Of a DNA stretch of 10,738 nucleotides, positions 1-10,738 are shown one piece after another (position 1 is the first letter of the stretch; the number at the start of each line of letters is the position of its first letter). A model generated the notes under the pieces. The model saw only the letters and a program-made list of their open reading frames with translations. It did not search any database and had not been told where the DNA came from. The position numbers and the translations under genes are program-made. Origin of the DNA: a virus; the UHGV virus genome UHGV-1751350, one strand, 5' to 3'.

Positions 1-1043
1 CGTTCGTCGGTGGCAGCCTGAAGCAGAGAGCCACCGACGAACGTCTGCATAAGCTGATCTCCACGCATCCCAATGGCTATATGACGCCGCAGGAGTTCTG
101 GGAGCTGGTGGTCACCTGTCTGTGCCTGCGGGGAAACTTTTACGCCTACAAAGTGAAAGCATTTGGCGAAGTGGCTGAACTGCTGCCCGTCGATCCCGGC
201 TGTGTGGTACCGAAGCTTAACAGTAGCTGGGAGCCGGTCTATCAGGTCACATTCCCGGATGGCTCCACGGATGTACTGAGCCAGGAGGATATCTGGCATG
301 TGCGCACGCTGACGCTGGACGGTCTGGTGGGACTGAATCCCGTCGCCTATGCCCGTGAGGCAATATCGCTGGCAGCTGCGACCGAAGAGCACGGGGCCGG
401 ACTGTTCAGCAATGGCGCGGTGACGTCGGGTGTGTTGCGTACAGAACAGACGCTGTCGGATCAGGCTTATGAGCGCCTGAAGAAAGATTTTGAGGAGCGT
501 CACACCGGGCTTGGTAATGCTCACCGCCCGATGATCCTTGAGATGGGGCTGGACTGGAAGTCGATGGCGCTGAACGCCGAGGACAGCCAGTTCCTGGAAA
601 CCCGCAAGTTTCAGCTTGAAGAAATCTGTCGTCTGTTCCGGGTGCCGTTGCACATGGTGCAGAACACCGATCGCGCCACCTTCAACAATATCGAAGAGCT
701 GGGGCTGGGATTTATCAACTATTCACTGGTGCCGTATCTGACCCGCATCGAACAGCGGATCAACACCGGACTGGTACGAAAAAGTAAGCAGGGCGTTTAT
801 TACGCCAAATTTAACGCCGGGGCGTTACTGCGCGGGGATATGAAGTCCCGTTTTGAAGCCTACGCCACCGGGATCAACTGGGGAATTTACTCTCCCAATG
901 ACTGCCGCGATCTGGAAGATATGAATCCGCGTCCCGGTGGTGATGTCTATCTCACACCGATGAACATGACCACGAAACCCTCCGATGGCAGTAAAGCCGG
1001 TAAGCAGAAGGATAACGCCAATGCAGACGAAACAACGTCTTGA
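1..1043 (+). CDS. Phage portal protein, HK97-like family; 5' end lies outside the window
   Basis: ORF track gives 81..1043, but the same frame is open back to the window start (first full codon at 3, no stop before 81), so the gene begins upstream. Size and position immediately upstream of the prohead protease and major capsid genes fit a portal. Family call is from recognition of the translated sequence, not a search. Confidence 0.75.
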   Translation, partial: FVGGSLKQRATDERLHKLISTHPNGYMTPQEFWELVVTCLCLRGNFYAYKVKAFGEVAELLPVDPGCVVPKLNSSWEPVYQVTFPDGSTDVLSQEDIWHVRTLTLDGLVGLNPVAYAREAISLAAATEEHGAGLFSNGAVTSGVLRTEQTLSDQAYERLKKDFEERHTGLGNAHRPMILEMGLDWKSMALNAEDSQFLETRKFQLEEICRLFRVPLHMVQNTDRATFNNIEELGLGFINYSLVPYLTRIEQRINTGLVRKSKQGVYYAKFNAGALLRGDMKSRFEAYATGINWGIYSPNDCRDLEDMNPRPGGDVYLTPMNMTTKPSDGSKAGKQKDNANADETTS

Positions 1044-1671
1044 TGTACCGCTGAGTCTGAAGTCTATCAGTGACTCCGGTGAGTTTGAAGGGTATGGCTC
1101 CGTCTTTGGTGTAAAGGACAGCCACGATGATGTGGTGATGTCCGGGGCATTTGCCGCCTCCCTGCGGGCGTGGAGTGACAGAAAAGCGTTACCTGCGCTG
1201 CTCTGGCAGCACCGCATGGATGAGCCCATCGGTGTTTACACCGAAATGAAGGAAGACGATGTCGGGCTTTACGTCAGGGGGCGGTTGCTCATTGATGATG
1301 ATCCCCTGGCAAAACGCGCACATGCACACATGAAGGCCGGTTCGTTAACCGGCCTTTCTATTGGGTACGTCCTGAAAGACTGGGAATACGACCGGACGAA
1401 AGAAGCCTTTCTGCTAAAAGAAATCGACCTCTGGGAAGTCAGTCTGGTGACGTTCCCGTCTAACGACGAGGCACGGATCAGCGACGTCAAGAACGCGCTG
1501 GCCCGCGGGGAAATCCCCGAACAGAAAAAAATCGAAAGAGTCCTGCGTGATGTCGGACTCTCCCGTACCCAGGCCAAAGCATTCATGGCCGGGGGCTATA
1601 GCGCACTGTCCCTGCGCGACGCTGAGGATGTGAGCTCTGCACTGAATGCACTGAAAAATCTGAACTTCTAA
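1021..1671 (+). CDS. Prohead maturation protease, HK97 family (peptidase S78/U35-like)
   Basis: Translation contains the segment EFEGYGSVFGVKDSHDDVVMSGAF, typical of HK97-type prohead proteases, and the gene sits between portal and capsid. The ORF track starts at ATG 985; I prefer ATG 1021 (MQTKQRLD...) because AAGGAT lies about 7 nt upstream, but 985 is possible. Either start overlaps the portal 3' end. Confidence 0.75.
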   Translation: MQTKQRLDVPLSLKSISDSGEFEGYGSVFGVKDSHDDVVMSGAFAASLRAWSDRKALPALLWQHRMDEPIGVYTEMKEDDVGLYVRGRLLIDDDPLAKRAHAHMKAGSLTGLSIGYVLKDWEYDRTKEAFLLKEIDLWEVSLVTFPSNDEARISDVKNALARGEIPEQKKIERVLRDVGLSRTQAKAFMAGGYSALSLRDAEDVSSALNALKNLNF

Positions 1672-1685
1672 TCAGGAGAAATACG

Positions 1686-2891
1686 ATGGCGGTAGATATT
1701 AAAGATGTCGAACAGGTCGCGCAGGAGCTGCAGCAGAAGTTTGACGACTTCAAAGCAAAGAACGACAAGCGCGTGGAGGCGATTGAGCAGGAAAAAGGCA
1801 AACTTGCCGGGCAGGTGGAAACCCTGAACGGAAAACTCAGCGAGCTGGAAAATCTCAAAAGCGACCTTGAAAAAGAGCTGCTTGAGCTGAAACGTCCGGC
1901 AGGTGGTGCGCAAAATAAACTGGCCACCGAGCATAAAGAGGCGTTTGTGGGTTTTCTGCGTAAAGGCCGTGAAGACGGTCTGCGCGATCTGGAGCGTAAG
2001 GCATTGCAGGTGGGCACCGATGAAGACGGTGGCTACGCCGTGCCGGAAGAACTGGATCGCAACATTCTCAACCTGCTGAAAGATGAAGTGGTGATGCGTC
2101 AGGAAGCCACGGTGATCACCGTTGGCGGTTCCGACTACAAAAAACTGGTGAATCTGGGCGGTACGGCTTCCGGATGGGTGGGGGAAACGGATACGCGATC
2201 CCAGACTGCCACCTCCAGACTGGAGCTGATTGAACCTCTCATGGGGGAAATCTACGGTAACCCGCAGGCCACCCAGAAAATGCTGGACGATGCCTTTTTC
2301 AACGTGGAGGCCTGGATCAACAGCGAGCTGGCAACCGAATTTGCCGAACAGGAAGAAATTGCCTTTACCTCCGGCGATGGCACCAAGAAGCCAAAAGGGT
2401 TCCTGGCGTATGAATCCACCGATGAAACCGATAAGGTCCGGGCGTTCGGCAAACTTCAGCATATTGTATCCGGCGAAGCGACGGCGGTGACCGCAGACGC
2501 CATTATCAAACTGATTTACACGCTGCGTAAGGCACACCGCACTGGCGCGAAATTCATGATGAACAACAACAGCCTGTTTGCCATCCGTCTGCTGAAAGAC
2601 AGCGAGGGTAACTATCTGTGGCGTCCGGGGCTGGAACTGGGGCAGCCGTCCTCTCTGGCGGGTTACGGTATCGCTGAAAACGAACAGATGCCGGATATCG
2701 CCGCTGATGCGAAAGCCATTGCATTTGGTAACTTCAAACGGGGTTACACCATCGTTGACCGTATCGGCACCCGCATTCTGCGTGACCCGTACACCAATAA
2801 ACCGTTTGTCGGTTTTTATACCACCAAGCGCACCGGCGGGATGCTGGTCGATTCGCAGGCCATCAAACTGCTGAAGATTGCAGCGGCGTAA
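1686..2891 (+). CDS. Major capsid protein, HK97 fold, with an N-terminal coiled-coil delta (scaffold-like) domain
   Basis: 401-aa ORF with AGGAG about 8 nt upstream of the ATG. The N-terminal ~100 aa are strongly charged and heptad-like (KFDDFKAKNDKRVEAIEQEKGKLAGQVETLNGKLSELENLKSDLEKELLELK), as in the HK97 gp5 delta domain. Position directly after the protease and absence of a separate scaffold gene fit this. Confidence 0.85.
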   Translation: MAVDIKDVEQVAQELQQKFDDFKAKNDKRVEAIEQEKGKLAGQVETLNGKLSELENLKSDLEKELLELKRPAGGAQNKLATEHKEAFVGFLRKGREDGLRDLERKALQVGTDEDGGYAVPEELDRNILNLLKDEVVMRQEATVITVGGSDYKKLVNLGGTASGWVGETDTRSQTATSRLELIEPLMGEIYGNPQATQKMLDDAFFNVEAWINSELATEFAEQEEIAFTSGDGTKKPKGFLAYESTDETDKVRAFGKLQHIVSGEATAVTADAIIKLIYTLRKAHRTGAKFMMNNNSLFAIRLLKDSEGNYLWRPGLELGQPSSLAGYGIAENEQMPDIAADAKAIAFGNFKRGYTIVDRIGTRILRDPYTNKPFVGFYTTKRTGGMLVDSQAIKLLKIAAA

Positions 2892-2897
2892 TCACTC

Positions 2898-2919
2898 AGG
2901 GGCGCGGAACCGCGCCCCT
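2898..2919 (+). terminator. GC-rich perfect hairpin just downstream of the capsid gene; candidate partial (attenuating) intrinsic terminator or RNA stability element
   Basis: AGGGGCGCGG at 2898-2907 and CCGCGCCCCT at 2910-2919 are exact reverse complements (10-bp stem, 2-nt AA loop). It is followed by GTTCTG, only a weak U-tract, so full termination is uncertain. Confidence 0.4.
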
Positions 2920-2939
2920 GTTCTGACGGGTGAAGAATC

Positions 2940-3140
2940 ATGATCCTGAAACAAGATCTGAAATGGTCACCGGACGGTATGCGTGTTGAGGTCATTCGGG
3001 CCGGTGAGTATGACGACGGGGCGCTTCCTGCCCGGGTGCAGGAGATTGCACTTCAGGCTGGGTTAGCAGAGCGCGGAATCAGTACAAAAAGCAGTAAAGC
3101 GGCAAAAGAGAAAAAAGCCACGACCAGTAAAGAGGGCTGA
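2940..3140 (+). CDS. Hypothetical small protein (66 aa) with a Lys/Ser/Thr-rich C-terminal tail
   Basis: ORF on the operon strand between the capsid hairpin and the head-tail connector gene. Its 3' end supplies the RBS (AAAGAGGG) for the next gene. Its own RBS is weak (GAAG). No family recognised. Confidence 0.4.
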   Translation: MILKQDLKWSPDGMRVEVIRAGEYDDGALPARVQEIALQAGLAERGISTKSSKAAKEKKATTSKEG

Positions 3141-3142
3141 GT

Positions 3143-3463
3143 ATGCTTCTGACAATGGAAGAGATTAAAGCCCAACTCCGGCTGGATGAGGATTTCGATG
3201 CTGATGACCGCCATCTGCAACTGCTGGCCTGTGCGGCGCAAAAGCGGACGGAAACGTATCTGAACCGGAAGCTCTATGCACCGGATGAAACCATTCCGGA
3301 CAGCGATCCGGACGGGCTGCACCTGCCGGATGATATTCGTCTGGGGATGCTGATGCTTATCAGCCATTTTTACGAAAACCGCTCGTCGGTTACGGAAGTG
3401 GAGAAACTCGACATGCCGCAGAGTTTTGGCTGGCTTGTCGGCCGGAACGTAACCGGGTATTGA
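3143..3463 (+). CDS. Head-tail connector protein (phage gp6-like)
   Basis: 106-aa acidic protein (MEEIKAQLRLDEDFDADD...), typical in size, composition and position (first gene after the capsid region) of gp6-like head-tail connectors. RBS AGAGGG upstream. Confidence 0.65.
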   Translation: MLLTMEEIKAQLRLDEDFDADDRHLQLLACAAQKRTETYLNRKLYAPDETIPDSDPDGLHLPDDIRLGMLMLISHFYENRSSVTEVEKLDMPQSFGWLVGRNVTGY

Positions 3464-3840
3464 TGCTCCTGCCGGACCCCGGTGAACTGAATAAACGCGT
3501 CCTGATCCGCCAGCGGGTGGATATGCCCGCGGATAACTTTGGCGTGGAGCATCAATACCCGGTTACGTTCCGGACATGGGCGAAGGTTATCCAGACCAGT
3601 GCCACCACCTGGCAGGAAACCGCGCAGACTGGAGACGCCATCACCCATTACATCACCATTCGCTACCGCCGGGGGATCACCGCTGATTATGAGGTGGTCT
3701 GCGGTGACAGTGTGTACCGGGTGAAACGTCAGCGCGATCTGAACGGGGCGCGGCGCTTTCTGCTGCTGGAGTGTACGGAACTGGGCGAATTTACGCAGAG
3801 TCACGGAGGCAGCAATGGCGACTCCCTTTTTTCACGTTGA
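3460..3840 (+). CDS. Head closure / head-tail adaptor protein (SPP1 gp16-like family)
   Basis: 126-aa ORF whose ATG overlaps the upstream stop (ATGATG/TGA overlap at 3460-3463). Size and position after the gp6-like connector match head closure proteins. Family call is from recognition only. Confidence 0.6.
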   Translation: MMLLPDPGELNKRVLIRQRVDMPADNFGVEHQYPVTFRTWAKVIQTSATTWQETAQTGDAITHYITIRYRRGITADYEVVCGDSVYRVKRQRDLNGARRFLLLECTELGEFTQSHGGSNGDSLFSR

Positions 3841-4321
3841 TGTTCAGCAGCCCGCGGAGATGCGCTTTAACCGCGCCCGTGTCCGGCGGGCGTTTGTCAC
3901 GATTGGGCAGCGTCATATGCGTGATGCCCGTCGGCTGGTGATGCGCCGTGCGCGGTCGGCACCGGGTGAAAATCCCGGTTATCAGACCGGACGTCTGGCT
4001 CGTTCGATTGGTTACATGGTGCCGAGAGCCAGTAAAAAGCGAGCCGGTTTTATGACACGCATTGCCCCTAACCAGCGCAACGGGAAGGGGAACCGGATGA
4101 TCTCTGGTGACTTCTATCCGGCGTTTCTGTTTTTTGGTGTCCGGGGAGGAGCAAAACGTCGTCGTAGCCATCATCGTGGTGCATCCGGTGGCAGCGGCTG
4201 GCGGCTGGCTCCACGTAATAACTTTATGGTGGAAACTCTTGAAAAGAACCGCAGCTGGACACGCTATTTTCTGGCGCGGGAATTGCGTAAATCACTGAAG
4301 CCGGAGCGACGACACAGATGA
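3815..4321 (+). CDS. Neck / tail-completion protein, possibly HK97 gp10-like
   Basis: 168-aa basic ORF with GGAGG 5-9 nt upstream of ATG 3815; overlaps the previous gene by 26 nt. Position between head closure and tail genes suggests a neck component; the family assignment is tentative. Confidence 0.45.
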   Translation: MATPFFHVDVQQPAEMRFNRARVRRAFVTIGQRHMRDARRLVMRRARSAPGENPGYQTGRLARSIGYMVPRASKKRAGFMTRIAPNQRNGKGNRMISGDFYPAFLFFGVRGGAKRRRSHHRGASGGSGWRLAPRNNFMVETLEKNRSWTRYFLARELRKSLKPERRHR

Positions 4322-4878
4322 AACTGACGCCTGTTATTGCTGCGCTGCGTGCCCGCTGCCCGTATTTTGAAAACCGGGTGGCAGGCGCGGCACAGTTCAA
4401 AAATCTGCCGGAGGTCGGAAAGCTGAGACTCCCGGCGGCGTATGTGGTACCGGGTGATGACTCTCCGGGAGAAAACAAAAGCCAGACCGACTACTGGCAG
4501 GAGCTGAAAGAGGGCTTCTCCGTGGTTGTCATACTGAGTAACGGGCGTGATGAGCGCGGTCAGTTTGCCTCGTATGATGTGGTGGACGATGTCCGGCAGA
4601 TGCTCTTTAAGGCTCTGCTGGGCTGGAACCCGGAAGCGTGCGGTAACCCGATTACCTATGACGGCGGCACGCTGCTGGATCTGAATCGTCATGAGCTGAT
4701 TTATCAGTTCGATTTTTCGGTCATCAGCGAGCTGACCGAAGACGATACCCGCCAGCAGGATGACCTGAACAGTCTGGATGAACTGCGAACGCTGGCGATT
4801 GATGTTGATTATCTCGATCCCGGTAACGGGCCTGACGGCGATATCGAACATCACACCGAAATAACCCTTCCTTCCTGA
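4318..4878 (+). CDS. Phage neck/tail-terminator-like protein (Mu gp37-like, DUF1834-type)
   Basis: 186-aa acidic ORF with ATGA overlap to the upstream gene, lying just upstream of the sheath module. Resemblance to Mu-type gp37 proteins is from memory, not a search. Confidence 0.45.
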   Translation: MKLTPVIAALRARCPYFENRVAGAAQFKNLPEVGKLRLPAAYVVPGDDSPGENKSQTDYWQELKEGFSVVVILSNGRDERGQFASYDVVDDVRQMLFKALLGWNPEACGNPITYDGGTLLDLNRHELIYQFDFSVISELTEDDTRQQDDLNSLDELRTLAIDVDYLDPGNGPDGDIEHHTEITLPS

Positions 4879-4886
4879 GGATCCTC

Positions 4887-5057
4887 ATGTTTGTGAAACC
4901 TGTTAAAGGGCGGTCAGTGCCTGACCCTGCCCGCGGCGACCTTTTGCCCGCCGAAGGGCGAAATGTTGACGAGAACAACTACTGGCTGCGCCGTGAAGCA
5001 GCGGGTGATATCCGGCGCGTGAATAAAAAGGTGAATACCGATGACGATAAGCTTTAA
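4887..5057 (+). CDS. Small conserved phage protein (56 aa; DUF2635-like) immediately upstream of the tail sheath
   Basis: Not in the supplied ORF track (short). I translated it by hand as MFVKPVKGRSVPDPARGDLLPAEGRNVDENNYWLRREAAGDIRRVNKKVNTDDDKL*. GAGGA lies about 7 nt upstream of the ATG, and its 3' end overlaps the sheath start by 17 nt. A small gene at this position is common in Mu-like tail modules. Confidence 0.5.
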   Translation: MFVKPVKGRSVPDPARGDLLPAEGRNVDENNYWLRREAAGDIRRVNKKVNTDDDKL

Positions 5058-6545
5058 CACCATTCCGTCGAATACGCTGGTTCCGCTGTTTTATGCGGAA
5101 ATGGATAACCAGGCTGCGAATACTGCACAGGACAGCGGAGCATCGCTGCTGATTGGTCATGCCAATAACGGTGCAGAGATTGTTGCCAACAGTCTGGTGC
5201 TGATGCCGTCGGCAGACTATGCATGCCAGATTTGTGGTGCGGGAAGTCAGCTGGCGCGTATGGTCGAGGCTTATCGCCAGACCGACCCGTTTGGTGAGCT
5301 GTATGTGATTGCCGTTCCTGAATCCACGGGCGCGGCGGCAACGGTTACGCTGACGGTGACTGGAGCAGCAACCGAAAGCGGCACGGTGAATGTTTATGTG
5401 GGACGTACCCGCGTGCAGGCACCGGTGACCAACGGCGATAACGTCACGACGATTGCCAGCAGTATCCAGGATGCCATCAATGCCGTTCCGACCCTGCCGT
5501 TTACGGCCTCATCTTCGGCAGGCGTGGTCACGCTGACCGCGCGTCATAAGGGGCTTTGCGGGAATGAAATTCCTGTCAGCCTCAATTACTACGGCTTTGG
5601 TGGTGGCGAAGTGCTGCCAGCGGGTGTACAGATTGCTGTGGCGACGGGTACCGCCGGAACGGGCGCTCCGGTTCTCACCGGCGCGGTGGCTGCAATGGCG
5701 GATGAGCCGTTTGATTATATCGGCCTGCCGTTCAACGACACGGCCTCCGTTAACACGCTGGTGACCGAGATGAACGATACCAGCGGTCGCTGGAGCTATG
5801 CGCGTCAGCTGTATGGTCATGTGTATACGGCAAAGATCGGCACGCTGTCAGAACTGGTGACCGCAGGTGACCAGTTTAACCAGCAGCACATTACCCTGGC
5901 GGGATACGAAAAAGACACCCAGACGCCTGCCGACGAGCTGGCGGCCACCGCGCCGGTGAGACCGCCCGCGCAGCGGTGTTTATTCGCAACGATCCGGCAC
6001 GTCCCACGCAGACCGGTGAGCTGGTGGGTATGCTGCCTGCGCCGAAGGGGAAACGGTTCACGATGACAGAACAACAGACCCTGCTGTCTCATGGCGTGGC
6101 AACGGCGTATGTCGAAAGCGGGGTGCTGCGCATTCAGCGTGATGTCACCACGTACAGGGAAAATGCTTACGGGGTTGCGGATAACAGCTACCTCGACAGC
6201 GAGACGCTGCATACCAGTGCGTATGTACTGCGCAAACTGAAATCCGTCATTACCAGTAAGTACGGGCGTCACAAGCTTGCCAGCGACGGTACCCGCTTTG
6301 GTCCCGGTCAGGCGATTGTCACCCCGGCGGTGATCAAAGGGGAACTGCTGGCAACCTACCGTCAGCTCGAGCGTGCGGGCATCGTGGAAAACTACGAACT
6401 GTTTAAGCAGTACCTGGTTGTGGAGCGTGATGCCAGCGATCCAAATCGCCTGAACACGCTGTTCCCGCCTGACTATGTTAACCAGCTGCGTGTCTTTGCC
6501 GTGGTTAACCAGTTCCGTCTTCAGTATTCAGAGGAGTCCGCATAA
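5041..6545 (+). pseudogene. Contractile tail sheath protein (Mu gpL-like), reading frame interrupted by a frameshift in this sequence
   Basis: Two overlapping ORFs in different frames (5041..6066 and 5976..6545) together span 1505 nt, one nucleotide short of a multiple of three. The first ORF's last ~35 aa (…PVRPPAQRCLFATIRHVPRRPVSWWVCCLRRRGNGSR) are Arg/Cys/Trp-rich and look out-of-frame. The second frame is open from 5880 and reads as plausible protein (…GETARAAVFIRNDPARPTQTGELVGMLPAPKGKRFTMTEQQ…). Together they give a ~500-aa sheath directly upstream of the tube gene. Confidence 0.6.
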
Positions 6546-6901
6546 TGGCCCGTATCGGGGGAACCTGTTATTTCAAGATTGACGGTCAGCAGCTATCGCT
6601 GACCGGCGGCATTGAGGTGCCCATGAACAAAACGGTTAATGATGACATCATCGGTCTGGACGGTTCAGTGGACCGCAAGGAAACTCACCGTGCACCTTAT
6701 GTCAAAGGGACCTTCAAGGTACCGAAGAATTTTCCGGTGAGCAAAATCACCTCGTCTGATGAGATGACCATCACTGCCGAGCTGGCGAACGGTCAGGTCT
6801 ATGTATTGTCGTCAGCCTGGCTGCACGGCGAAGCGAACCATAATGCCGAAGAAGGCACGGTCGATATTGAATTTCACGGTGAAGAAGGGGATTACCAGTG
6901 A
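6545..6901 (+). CDS. Tail tube protein (Mu gpM-like)
   Basis: 118-aa ORF immediately after the sheath (TAATG overlap at 6543-6547) with GAGGAG upstream. Size and position are typical of a contractile-tail tube protein. Confidence 0.75.
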   Translation: MARIGGTCYFKIDGQQLSLTGGIEVPMNKTVNDDIIGLDGSVDRKETHRAPYVKGTFKVPKNFPVSKITSSDEMTITAELANGQVYVLSSAWLHGEANHNAEEGTVDIEFHGEEGDYQ

Positions 6902-7221
6902 TTGAGCTTGTACTTAAAAAACCGATCATCGCCCACAAAGAAACACTGCATGTGTTGGAAATACGTGAGCCTACGTATGACGAGATTGAGGCGCTGGGGT
7001 TCCCTTTCTCTGTTTCGCCTGATGGTGGTATGAAAATGGACAGTCAGGTGGCGCTGAAATATATCCCGCTTCTGGCCGGGATCCCGCGCTCGTCTGCAGC
7101 GCAGATGACGAAGCTGGATATTTTCAAGGCAGGCATGATTGTAATGCGTTTTTTTACCGGCTTGGAGACGGAAGAGACCTCAGGAAGCGATTCTACAATG
7201 TCGCGTGGTTCTGGAAATTAA
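6898..7221 (+). CDS. Tail assembly chaperone, short form (lambda G / P2 E analogue)
   Basis: 107-aa ORF between the tube and tape measure genes, the conserved position of the tail assembly chaperone. GTGA start/stop overlap with the tube gene. Contains a T7 run in frame. Confidence 0.65.
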   Translation: MIELVLKKPIIAHKETLHVLEIREPTYDEIEALGFPFSVSPDGGMKMDSQVALKYIPLLAGIPRSSAAQMTKLDIFKAGMIVMRFFTGLETEETSGSDSTMSRGSGN

Positions 7222-7313
7222 ACCCACTTGAACTTCGCCGGACGGCTATTTCCCACTTTGCTGATCTGGAGGCAGAGGCCGTCCGTATAAATGAGGAGAT
7301 GAAGCATGGCTGA
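6898..7313 (+). CDS. Tail assembly chaperone, predicted -1 frameshift-extended long form (lambda G-T / P2 E+E' analogue)
   Basis: The zero frame reads cgT TTT TTT Acc across the T run at 7149-7155. After a -1 slip the new frame stays open from 7155 to a TGA at 7311-7313, overlapping the tape measure start at 7306. Hand translation of the extension: YRLGDGRDLRKRFYNVAWFWKLNPLELRRTAISHFADLEAEAVRINEEMKHG*. Predicted fusion is about 138 aa. Confidence 0.45.
7149..7155 (+). other. Candidate -1 programmed ribosomal frameshift slippery heptamer (T TTT TTT)
   Basis: Seven consecutive T in the chaperone coding frame, with an open -1 frame downstream that runs to the tape measure start. Confidence 0.45.
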
Positions 7314-9213
7314 TAATTTTCAGCTGAAAGCCATCATCACCGCCGTTGACAGGCTATCCGGCCCGCTTAAAGGTATGCAGCGTCAGCTTAAGGGATTTCA
7401 GAAAGAAGTCTCCAGCCTTGCTCTGGGTGCTGCCGGGGCGGGTACTGCAATAATGGGGGCACTGGCACTCCCTGTAAAATCAGCCATCACCCTTGAATCG
7501 AAGATGGCTGATGTCCGCAAAGTGGTGGACGGTCTGGATACGCCGGATGCATTTAAGGCCATGACGGAGCAGGTACGCGCTTTGTCTACAGAGCTTCCCA
7601 TGTCTGCAGACGGGATCGCGGAAATTGTGGCGGCTGGCGGTCAGGCCGGGATTGCACGTGATGAACTGATGCAGTTTGCCACTGATGCGGTGAAGATGGG
7701 CGTGGCCTTTGATACAACGGCTGAAGAGTCCGGGCAGATGATGGCCCAGTGGCGTACTGCGTTTAATATGACGCAGGATGAAGTGGCCGGGCTGGCTGAC
7801 AAAATCAACTACCTTGGTAATACCGGCCCGGCGAATGCGAAGAAAATCTCCGATATTGTTACGCGTATTGGTCCTTTAGGTGGTGTTGCAGGTGTGGCTT
7901 CCGGCGAAATTGCGGCAATGGGGGCAACCATTGCCGGGATGGGCGTGGAGTCAGAAATTGCCGCCACAGGGATCAAGAACTTCATGCTTTCCCTGACCGC
8001 GGGAAATTCTGCGACAAAATCGCAGAAACAGGCATTGCGTTTTCTGCGGATCAATCCGAAGAAATTAGCTGCTGATATGCAGAAAGATGCCCGGGGCACC
8101 ATGCTGTCTGTACTGGATGCGATGGCTAAAGTGCCTAAAGAAAAACGGGCCGCTGTGCTGAATGCCCTGTTCGGGAAAGAGTCTCTGGGCGCGATAGCAC
8201 CTCTGCTGACTAACCTTGATTTGTTGCGTACCAACTTCAGGCGGGTTGCGGATTCCCAGCAGTATGGCAGTTCGATGCAGAAGGAATATGCTTCGAGGGC
8301 AGCGACGACGGAAAACCAGCTTTTACTTCTGCAAAATCAACTTGATGCCATTTCTTCCACGCTGGGGGAAACGTTTCTTCCTGAGGTTAATGATGGTCTT
8401 GAAGCGGTAAAACCGCTCCTTGAGGAAGTGAGAACGTTTGTCCGTGAAAACCCGGAGCTCGTTAAGACCATTGCTAAAATCGGTCTGGCCTTACTGACGG
8501 TGGGAGCCGCTGCAGGCTCTTTGTCCAGAATTATGAAAGTTCTCGGCGGTGTGATGAATATGACGCCAGCTAAGGGGCTGATTGCTCTTCTGGTTGGTGG
8601 CGCTTACCTCATTATTGATAACTGGGAAACCGTAGGCCCTGTCATAAAAAAAGTCTGGCACGTGGTGGATGAAACGGCGCAGGCGATGGGGGGATGGGAA
8701 ACTGTTCTGAAAGCGATTGCCCTGTTTATGGCAACCAAATGGGTTGCTGACGTTACCAAATCCATTACCGCAGTGACCAGAGAGATGCGTACGCTGGGGA
8801 AGGTATCGGCAGAAACGGGATTGATGGGGAAAGGCCGCGGCTTTATCGGGAAGGCCGGGGGATATGGTTTTCTGGGAACCCTGATGTATGAGCCGGTTAA
8901 AGATACTCTGGAAAGTGTTGTTCCTGAAGATACGGTTAACTGGCTGGATAATAAAGGGCTGTTTCTGGCTTCAGACTGGACGCCTTTTTTTGATCGTAAA
9001 GAGTACGAGCAGTATCAGGCCAGCCTGAGCCAGTACAAACCCAATGTTCCGCTGTTGAATCCATCTTCTTCCATGACACAGCACAGCGAACTGAAAGTCA
9101 CGTTCGAGAATGCTCCGCCAGGTATGAAGATAATTGATGTACCGGGCAAAGCCGATCCCCTGATGAAAATCACGCACGATGTGGGGTATTCCCCTTTTCG
9201 TTTTCCACGATAA
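7306..9213 (+). CDS. Tail tape measure protein
   Basis: 635-aa ORF with GAGGAG upstream, directly after the chaperone. Ala/Gly-rich and predicted helical, with a hydrophobic Gly-rich segment (IAKIGLALLTVGAAAGSL…GLIALLVGGAYLII) typical of tape measure proteins. Largest gene in the tail module. Confidence 0.85.
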   Translation: MADNFQLKAIITAVDRLSGPLKGMQRQLKGFQKEVSSLALGAAGAGTAIMGALALPVKSAITLESKMADVRKVVDGLDTPDAFKAMTEQVRALSTELPMSADGIAEIVAAGGQAGIARDELMQFATDAVKMGVAFDTTAEESGQMMAQWRTAFNMTQDEVAGLADKINYLGNTGPANAKKISDIVTRIGPLGGVAGVASGEIAAMGATIAGMGVESEIAATGIKNFMLSLTAGNSATKSQKQALRFLRINPKKLAADMQKDARGTMLSVLDAMAKVPKEKRAAVLNALFGKESLGAIAPLLTNLDLLRTNFRRVADSQQYGSSMQKEYASRAATTENQLLLLQNQLDAISSTLGETFLPEVNDGLEAVKPLLEEVRTFVRENPELVKTIAKIGLALLTVGAAAGSLSRIMKVLGGVMNMTPAKGLIALLVGGAYLIIDNWETVGPVIKKVWHVVDETAQAMGGWETVLKAIALFMATKWVADVTKSITAVTREMRTLGKVSAETGLMGKGRGFIGKAGGYGFLGTLMYEPVKDTLESVVPEDTVNWLDNKGLFLASDWTPFFDRKEYEQYQASLSQYKPNVPLLNPSSSMTQHSELKVTFENAPPGMKIIDVPGKADPLMKITHDVGYSPFRFPR

Positions 9214-9237
9214 TGCAGTCCTTTTTGAGGTCAGTCT

Positions 9238-10614
9238 ATGGATTTATCCTCATTTCCCACCCGACCTTCATTACTTTCGTCGTCTTCAGGCTGGCGTGAC
9301 AGACTTCAGGACGCGTCATTTCGCGGCGTGCCGTTTAAGGTTGAAGAAGAAAGTGCGGGAACCGGTCGCCGTGTGGAAACACATGAATACCCGAACCGCG
9401 ACAAACCCTATACCGAAGACCTGGGGAAAATCACTTTTCGCCCGTCCATCACGGCTTATGTGGTGGGAGATGACTGCTTTGACCAGCGCGATCGCCTGAT
9501 TGACGCGCTGAATAAACCCGGTCCCGGCACGCTTGTCCATCCGACATACGGTGAGCTGAAAGTCTGTGTTGACGGGGAGGTTCGGGTCAGCACATCGAAG
9601 AGTGAAGGGCGTATTGTCCGCTTTGACCTGAAGTTTGTCGAAGCGGGAGAACTCTCTTACCCCACATCAGGTGCGGCGACGGCGCAGACGCTGATGTCAT
9701 CCTGTTCTGCACTGGATGACTGCATCAGTGACAGTTTCAGTGGTTTCAGTATCGATGGCGTGGCAGATTTTGTGCAGAACGACGTCGTCGGTAATGCCAG
9801 CACAATGCTTGGGTATGTTTCTGATGCGATGAAAGTGGTGGATTCTGCCGTATCGGATGCCGCCAGGCTGTTGCAGGGGGATATCTCGGTACTTCTGCCG
9901 CCGCCATCGTCAGGCAAAAATTTCGTTGAGCAGGTGCAGAAAATGTGGCGTACCGGGAAACGCCTTTATGGTAACGCCAGCGACCTGGTCACCATGATCA
10001 AAACGCTTTCCGGTGTCAGCCTCGGCAGCGATCTGCAACCGCGCGGCGTCTGGAAAACGGACAGTAAAACTACCGCTACGGCGACGCAGCAGCGTAACGT
10101 GGTTGCCAGCACCCTTCGTACGACCGCAATCAGCGAAGCGGCGTATGCCGTCACACGATTGCCTGCGCCAACAACTTCCGCGGTGATGCAGAATGCCGCA
10201 ATGGGGCAGGCAACAACACCTGCGCAGAGCACTGGCTGGCCTTCCGTCACGCATCCGGCACTGAACAATGCACCGGCGGTGAAAAGCACGGTTGACCTGC
10301 CGACGTGGGAAGAACTGACTGACATTCGCGACACACTGAATACGACAATTGATAAGGAGTTGTCCCGTACAACCAGTGATGCGCTGTTTCTGGCGCTGCG
10401 CCGGGTGAAAGCAGATCTGAATGCGGATATCAACATGCGCCTTGAACAGTCTGCGCGGATCATTCAGCGCACACCGGATGAGGTTTTACCCGCGCTGGTG
10501 CTGGCGGCGACCTGGTTTGATAACGCGGCGCGTGACGCGGACATTATCCGGCGTAATGCCATTACGCATCCCGGCTTTGTGCCGGTGATCCCTCTGAAGG
10601 TGCCAGTGCAATGA
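9238..10614 (+). CDS. DNA circularization protein (Mu gpN-like)
   Basis: 458-aa ORF directly after the tape measure gene. The N-terminal region (WRDRLQDASFRGVPFKVEEESAGTGRRVETHEYPNRDKPYTEDLGKITF) matches what I recognise as the conserved N-terminal domain of Mu gpN-type proteins. GAGG upstream of the ATG. Confidence 0.75.
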   Translation: MDLSSFPTRPSLLSSSSGWRDRLQDASFRGVPFKVEEESAGTGRRVETHEYPNRDKPYTEDLGKITFRPSITAYVVGDDCFDQRDRLIDALNKPGPGTLVHPTYGELKVCVDGEVRVSTSKSEGRIVRFDLKFVEAGELSYPTSGAATAQTLMSSCSALDDCISDSFSGFSIDGVADFVQNDVVGNASTMLGYVSDAMKVVDSAVSDAARLLQGDISVLLPPPSSGKNFVEQVQKMWRTGKRLYGNASDLVTMIKTLSGVSLGSDLQPRGVWKTDSKTTATATQQRNVVASTLRTTAISEAAYAVTRLPAPTTSAVMQNAAMGQATTPAQSTGWPSVTHPALNNAPAVKSTVDLPTWEELTDIRDTLNTTIDKELSRTTSDALFLALRRVKADLNADINMRLEQSARIIQRTPDEVLPALVLAATWFDNAARDADIIRRNAITHPGFVPVIPLKVPVQ

Positions 10615-10738
10615 ACGACAATGTCACGCTACGGATAAATGGCCGGGAGTGGAATGGCTGGACATCGGTGCGCATCGGTGCCGGTATTGAACGGCTGGCG
10701 CGGGATTTCAGTGTGGAGATCACCCGCCAGTGGCCGGG
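10611..10738 (+). CDS. Baseplate hub protein (Mu gpP / P2 gpD-like), N-terminal fragment; 3' end outside the window
   Basis: ATG at 10611 overlaps the gpN-like stop (ATGA). Translation MNDNVTLRINGREWNGWTSVRIGAGIERLARDFSVEITRQWP runs to the window end. Gene order (tape measure, gpN, gpP) matches Mu-like tails. Confidence 0.5.
   Translation, partial: MNDNVTLRINGREWNGWTSVRIGAGIERLARDFSVEITRQWP

Follow-up and report, generated by a model that had tools for sequence, protein, structure and literature searches.

The tail sheath gene is divided between two reading frames

What has divided the tail sheath gene of this prophage DNA between two reading frames, and was the change made in a cell, in a tube or in the sequence record? 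The window, by which we mean the whole stretch of 10,738 nt that was analysed, had been predicted from its letters to carry a sheath gene split in this manner, and both the ORFs and the Pfam matches on the two halves bear this out. The 5′ fragment (5041..6066, + strand, frame A) is a 341-aa ORF that starts as in the annotated 498-aa gene; translated from ATG 5041, it comprises 302 native residues followed by 39 out-of-frame residues, and ends at a TGA stop at 6064-6066. The 3′ part (5880..6545, + strand, frame B) lies behind a TAA at 5877-5879 and is open from 5880 through 6545, with native sheath residues (TARAAVFIRND...) picking up again at 5961. The first start codon in this frame is GTG 5976, giving a 189-aa ORF (5976..6545, + strand). 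From the positions of the TAA and the TGA, the two frames are simultaneously open over exactly 5880-6066, the span given in the original prediction. Instead of a single uninterrupted sheath ORF of ~498 codons, the window copy is thus split into ORFs of 341 and 189 aa.

Fragment A matches PF17481 at residues 95-196 (45.8 bits) and profile positions 2-104 of PF04984 at residues 206-301 (61.8 bits), whereas the frame-B translation carries profile positions 109-168 of PF04984 (45.2 bits) and the C-terminal domain PF17482 (79.8 bits), all four Pfam matches being above the curated cut-offs. PF17481, PF04984 and PF17482 are all found on one chain in the intact reference sheath, which matches PHROG 165 with E = 6e-231. 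Together, 5041..6066 and the frame open over 5880..6545 constitute one tail sheath of the SfV/SfI type. The window gene shares with the SfV/SfI/SfII/SfIV-type sheaths (Mu gpL-like; PHROG 165) the same start codon and the domain order PF17481, PF04984 and PF17482, and with SfV-type systems the neighbours, i.e. a DUF2635 gene upstream and a tube gene downstream (ORF 6545..6901, directly behind the sheath gene). It differs from them in being interrupted at codon 303 by a deletion-insertion of net +8 nt, whereas the SfV-type homologues are a single 498-codon ORF. The break falls in the middle of PF04984, after residue 302 (...ADELAA), and the C-terminal third of the protein, including PF17482, lies in the other frame without a dedicated start. 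As written, the gene is predicted to be dead, i.e. unable to yield a functional sheath.

The remainder of the window follows the expected plan. A partial portal gene is followed by genes for the prohead protease, major capsid, head-tail adaptor, head closure, tail terminator, DUF2635, sheath, tube, assembly protein, tape measure and DNA circularisation protein, the same order as in the annotated reference prophage (L001), SfI and SfV. The tail assembly protein ORF (GTG 6898..7221, 107 aa) leaves an 84-nt gap before the tape measure gene (region 6898-7305), and this gene is annotated at 324 nt in E. coli RefSeq records as against 270 nt in SfI and SfV.

Seven nucleotides of the sheath gene are replaced by a 15-nt inverted copy

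When all complete E. coli genomes were searched by megablast with 5041-6545, matches came from 1107 records, and in 1076 complete genomes the sheath gene was covered to 80% or more. In each of the 30 E. coli matches listed, the 1505 nt of the query align with 1497 nt (498 aa) of an annotated, uninterrupted sheath gene, and the sheath genes of SfI, SfII, SfIV, SfV, ST64B and phiP27 are 1497 nt each; the sole exception to this length, one phage among the near-full-length phage matches listed, spans 1494 nt. As the intact genes measure 1497 nt and the window copy 1505 nt, the latter is 8 nt too long and not 1 nt short. The sheath DNA of the window is 96-97% identical to the phage genes and 99.4% identical to the E. 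coli prophage alleles, from which it differs in a single patch only.

Alignment, blastn and a reverse-complement match place this patch at 5946..5960, inside the 5940-5980 interval where the junction had been guessed to lie. The ancestral state is known because the homologues fix the AAGCCGT structure: where the intact genes read GGCGGC-AAGCCGT-ACCGCC, the window reads GGCGGC-CACCGCGCCGGTGAG-ACCGCC, so that 15 nt stand in place of 7 and the net gain of 8 nt amounts to a frame change of -1. The patch is the exact reverse complement (15/15 nt) of window positions 5674-5688, and this donor is unaltered with respect to the reference. Within the donor arm (5673..5693), the copied part (5674-5688) is bordered by microhomology at both ends, GC at one and A at the other. 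The arm faces 5941-5961 in a new 21-nt inverted repeat, 20/21 complementary, with its arms 247 nt apart. An exact 15-nt reverse-complement match within ±1 kb would be expected by chance with a probability of about 2e-6. Judged from the alignment, a reverse-complement replacement of this kind is characteristic of a template switch of the switch-and-return type.

The patch appears to be private to the window, a point that carries less weight than it might seem to, as the source may have been withheld from the collections searched. It is present in none of the 969 E. coli records that match 5900-6010, where the best identity is 91.9% and corresponds to the ancestral structure, and its exact junction string is found in none of the species-representative genomes, IMG/VR contigs or metagenome contigs searched. 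No look-up match is on record for the exact 341-aa sheath fragment or for the altered 106-aa head-tail adaptor described below.

Two further inverted-copy patches in an otherwise identical prophage

The closest relative of the window is an intact prophage carried by about 15 complete E. coli genomes (e.g. CFSAN061770, EC6868 and MS14387), the carriers having been isolated in different countries from humans, poultry, duck, a heron and cheese. The genes of this prophage, terminase through baseplate, are all annotated as intact. In a base-by-base comparison, window positions 12-3443 and 3469-10738 are identical to L001 except for the sheath patch, with no SNPs, and the only two further differences, at 1-11 and 3444-3468, are both reverse-complement patches. 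Each of the three differences is, over its full length, a reverse-complement copy of a stretch lying 20-260 nt away.

The patch at 3444..3468 is 25 nt long and is the reverse complement of 3547-3571 (25/25), with a chance probability of about 2e-12. It replaces 58 ancestral nt, a net change of -33, and creates a 28-bp perfect inverted repeat (3442-3469 versus 3546-3573). Sitting where the head-tail adaptor and head closure genes overlap, it swaps the last 7 residues of the adaptor for 6 others and leaves the head closure protein with Met-Leu in place of its first 13 residues (125 aa versus 136). A TGATG stop/start overlap is fortuitously retained, and both genes keep usable stop and start codons. 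Local megablast finds this patch in no complete E. coli genome, and its junction string is absent from the metagenome contigs and species-representative genomes searched.

The patch at the window edge (1..11), in the portal gene, is the reverse complement of 33-43 (11/11), where the reference has ATCACCTGAAC; its chance probability is about 5e-4. Including a GGC microhomology, 1-11 and 33-43 form a 14-bp stem with a 15-nt loop. As the left junction is hidden by the window edge, the 11 nt could represent either a patch or the beginning of a longer fold-back. This patch, too, is found in no complete E. coli genome by local megablast. A contig-end tip of a de Bruijn graph was considered for 1-11 and is not supported, since such a tip would reach ~k-1 nt (at least 20) beyond the junction and not 11.

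Natural variation in the same region served as a control. L001 differs from one relative (L003) by 84 differences in 63 clusters and from another (L004) by 167 differences in 137 clusters, with no reverse-complement patch in either comparison; natural relatives of the region differ by scattered substitutions. In the distant controls SfI and SfV, only chance-level matches of 10-14 nt occur, and these lie inside long mosaic segments. Three patches together with zero SNPs in 10.7 kb would not be the pattern of ordinary, slow prophage decay. Of the two explanations originally offered for the split, a sequence error and a true inactivating mutation, both are still live, although the accompanying picture of a decaying prophage is weakened by the lack of point differences elsewhere.

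With the patches set aside, the identity of window 12-10738 across the prophages of ~15 genomes implies that the prophage lineage is very young or highly conserved. In strain KK05-19 (NZ_CM144239.1 / NZ_OZ392455.1), the same prophage region is interrupted by an IS3-like element, ISEc31, and matches in three pieces over about 12 kb, an instance of ordinary prophage decay that may be set beside the window for contrast.

A switch-and-return template switch as the probable mechanism

We attribute the split of the sheath gene to a short switch-and-return template switch by a DNA polymerase, a reading to which we assign a probability of roughly 0.85. Top-strand synthesis would have left its template after 5945, and the 3′ end would have re-paired via a 2-nt GC microhomology ~260 nt behind, either on the folded-back nascent strand or on the opposite strand. 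At the donor, 15 nt would then have been copied, from 5688 back to 5674, and synthesis would have rejoined its original template 7 nt further on via a 1-nt A microhomology. The lesion has the attributes of such an event, i.e. a reverse-complement copy of nearby sequence, a known ancestral state and collinear flanks that are 100% identical to L001. Moreover, microhomology is present at 5/5 visible junctions of the three patches (3, 2, 1, 2 and 1 nt; chance expectation about 4^-9), as would be expected if the 3′ end left by a polymerase had primed anew at short complementary sites, and which speaks against random editing.

Two classes of template-switch mutation offer themselves for comparison. 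Quasipalindrome template switches, known from the Ripley model and from E. coli assays of the Lovett laboratory, reportedly correct a pre-existing imperfect palindrome. The window patches resemble quasipalindrome mutations in that a strand switch by the polymerase leaves a perfect inverted repeat behind and may shift the reading frame. They are unlike them in their ancestral state, as all three target sites shared just 1-3 nt of microhomology with the flanks of their donors (left flank of the sheath patch versus donor: 4/5 nt, GCGGC versus GCAGC). Because the targets held no pre-existing quasipalindromes, the events appear to be nearer to microhomology-mediated switching than to palindrome correction of the Ripley type.

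In the four-point template-switch model (Loytynoja & Goldman 2017), events of type 3-2-1-4, or the mirror type 1-4-3-2, create an inverted repeat (PMC5453318). The window patches agree with this model in that each mutation cluster is wholly explained by a nearby reverse-complement copy, the flanks are collinear and a new inverted repeat arises (PMC5453318). They depart from it in their density of three events per 10.7 kb, in having no accompanying substitutions and in a donor-target distance of up to 247 nt.

Origin of the patches

Where the polymerase acted is a separate matter. From the sequence comparisons, we lean slightly towards the view that it did so in vitro, or that the record is otherwise non-native, through low-input strand-displacement amplification, editing or an assembly artefact. 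Our weights are rough and the rival readings need not sum to one: the largest share goes to an in vitro or record-level origin, a smaller one to an event in vivo, and the rest, which includes editing, is left unassigned. Amplification offers an incomplete parallel: phi29 MDA of E. coli DNA gives rise, about once every 10-22 kb, to inverted junctions biased towards nearby sequence, about 77% of which have priming complementarity of at least 2 bp (Lasken & Stockwell 2007, PMC1855051). The window patches share with these chimeras the inverted orientation, the nearby donor and the short priming complementarity (PMC1855051), the latter reaching at least 2 nt at 3/5 junctions. However, each MDA chimera described consists of one inverted junction plus an intervening deletion (PMC1855051), whereas the window patches switch and return, rejoining the template after 15-25 nt, and two coupled switches per patch, of which that paper gives no account, would be needed to produce them by this route. 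Furthermore, such errors would not normally become fixed in the consensus of a high-coverage isolate assembly. The usable stop and start codons left by the 3444-3468 patch are also compatible with a real, tolerated mutation, although chance could have preserved them too.

The alternative that the sheath was inactivated by a real mutation in vivo, through one or several template switches (e.g. in a single error-prone episode of microhomology-mediated break-induced or restart replication), we consider doubtful, though it has definite points in its favour. Template-switch mutations in vivo have been described as taking just this form, inverted patches that switch and return with microhomology (PMC5453318), as they reportedly do in E. 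coli quasipalindrome work too, the junctions are clean on both sides at 3444-3468 and at 5946-5960, and hits of this sort are tolerated by a resident prophage. If this alternative is true, the strain is left with an inactivated sheath gene and is unable to assemble contractile tails. Against it, three events in 10.7 kb without a single SNP far exceed any spontaneous rate, judging from general knowledge of mutation spectra, and such a density throughout the genome would presumably be lethal. The ~200 natural difference clusters among the relatives include no patch of this type, none of the three patches occurs in the other genomes or contigs searched, and the ancestral target offered no quasipalindrome and just 1-3 nt of flanking microhomology. 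The more specific proposal that all three patches are real and arose together, in one low-processivity, MMBIR-like episode of restart or break-induced replication in a natural E. coli lineage, is in our estimation improbable. If true, the window would hold a natural bacterial MMBIR-like multi-switch scar, made up of inverted templated patches without base substitutions.

There is also a slender chance that the record was altered after sequencing, whether through template-switch edits, deliberate or simulated, or through a software artefact, in an otherwise unmodified prophage sequence. Such an alteration would sit well with a sequence that is perfectly identical to L001 save for three stereotyped patches, one of them abutting window position 1, and with exact products and junction strings that turned up in none of the collections searched. 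Random edits would not be expected to give microhomology at all five visible junctions, however, and the record bears no positive sign of manipulation.

Under any of these origins, the lesion belongs to a standard class of complex mutation or artefact and the sheath is of the standard SfV/Mu gpL type; it is the clustering of the patches that is unusual. As far as phage biology is concerned the case is an ordinary one, another disrupted prophage gene that involves neither recoding nor a new sheath architecture. The presence of three inverted-copy patches without SNPs is, in turn, a strong quality flag on the source sequence. If the patches are artefacts, hundreds more are probably spread throughout the whole assembly, and if they are real, the locus would be one of the rare natural cases in which a bacterial chromosome has recorded template switches in a cluster.

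A one-base indel and recoding as explanations of the split

Two simpler accounts of the split leave the inverted copy aside. The original prediction proposed a single-base deletion from a gene of ~501 codons, which could be a simple sequencing or assembly indel, and the arithmetic is suggestive, as 1505 is 1506 - 1 and the frame change does equal -1. The deletion is nevertheless refuted by the lesion itself, a 15-for-7-nt replacement of net +8 with a defined inverted donor at 5674-5688, and no intact ORF of ~501 codons is found among the homologues, in which the gene measures 1497 nt (498 aa), or 1494 nt in the one phage, and not 1506. The allele that a one-base indel would imply (...AATAPGETAR...) is found in none of the 969 E. 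coli records, and this account is accordingly very improbable. We also looked for a natural allele three codons longer, and there is none among the 969 E. coli records matching 5900-6010 or the phages listed. One added base, suggested at the outset as a way to a single ORF of ~501 codons, would not give back the ancestral 498-aa gene. For annotators, the sheath gene and the adaptor/closure junction are best treated as bearing template-switch patches, for which the addition of a base is no repair.

Programmed ribosomal frameshifting or other recoding that fuses both frames into one sheath protein, already ranked as the least likely explanation at the outset, retains a practically negligible probability: both frames are open over 5880-6066 and an X XXY YYZ heptamer (GGGAAAC at 6048) falls by coincidence into frame A, but the two-frame layout occurs in no homologue among the E. 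coli genomes and phages compared, there is no slippery heptamer at the junction (5946-5960), and the heptamer at 6048 lies ~90 nt beyond the lesion and is out of frame in the intact genes, so that a shift there would leave ~30 conserved residues replaced by out-of-frame sequence. GGGAAAC (6048-6054) is the only in-frame heptamer, lies within the out-of-frame tail of fragment A and is present in the intact genes, and we judge its occurrence to be due to chance. The scan for heptamers and homopolymers also picks up an A5 run at 5909, which is likewise present in the intact genes.
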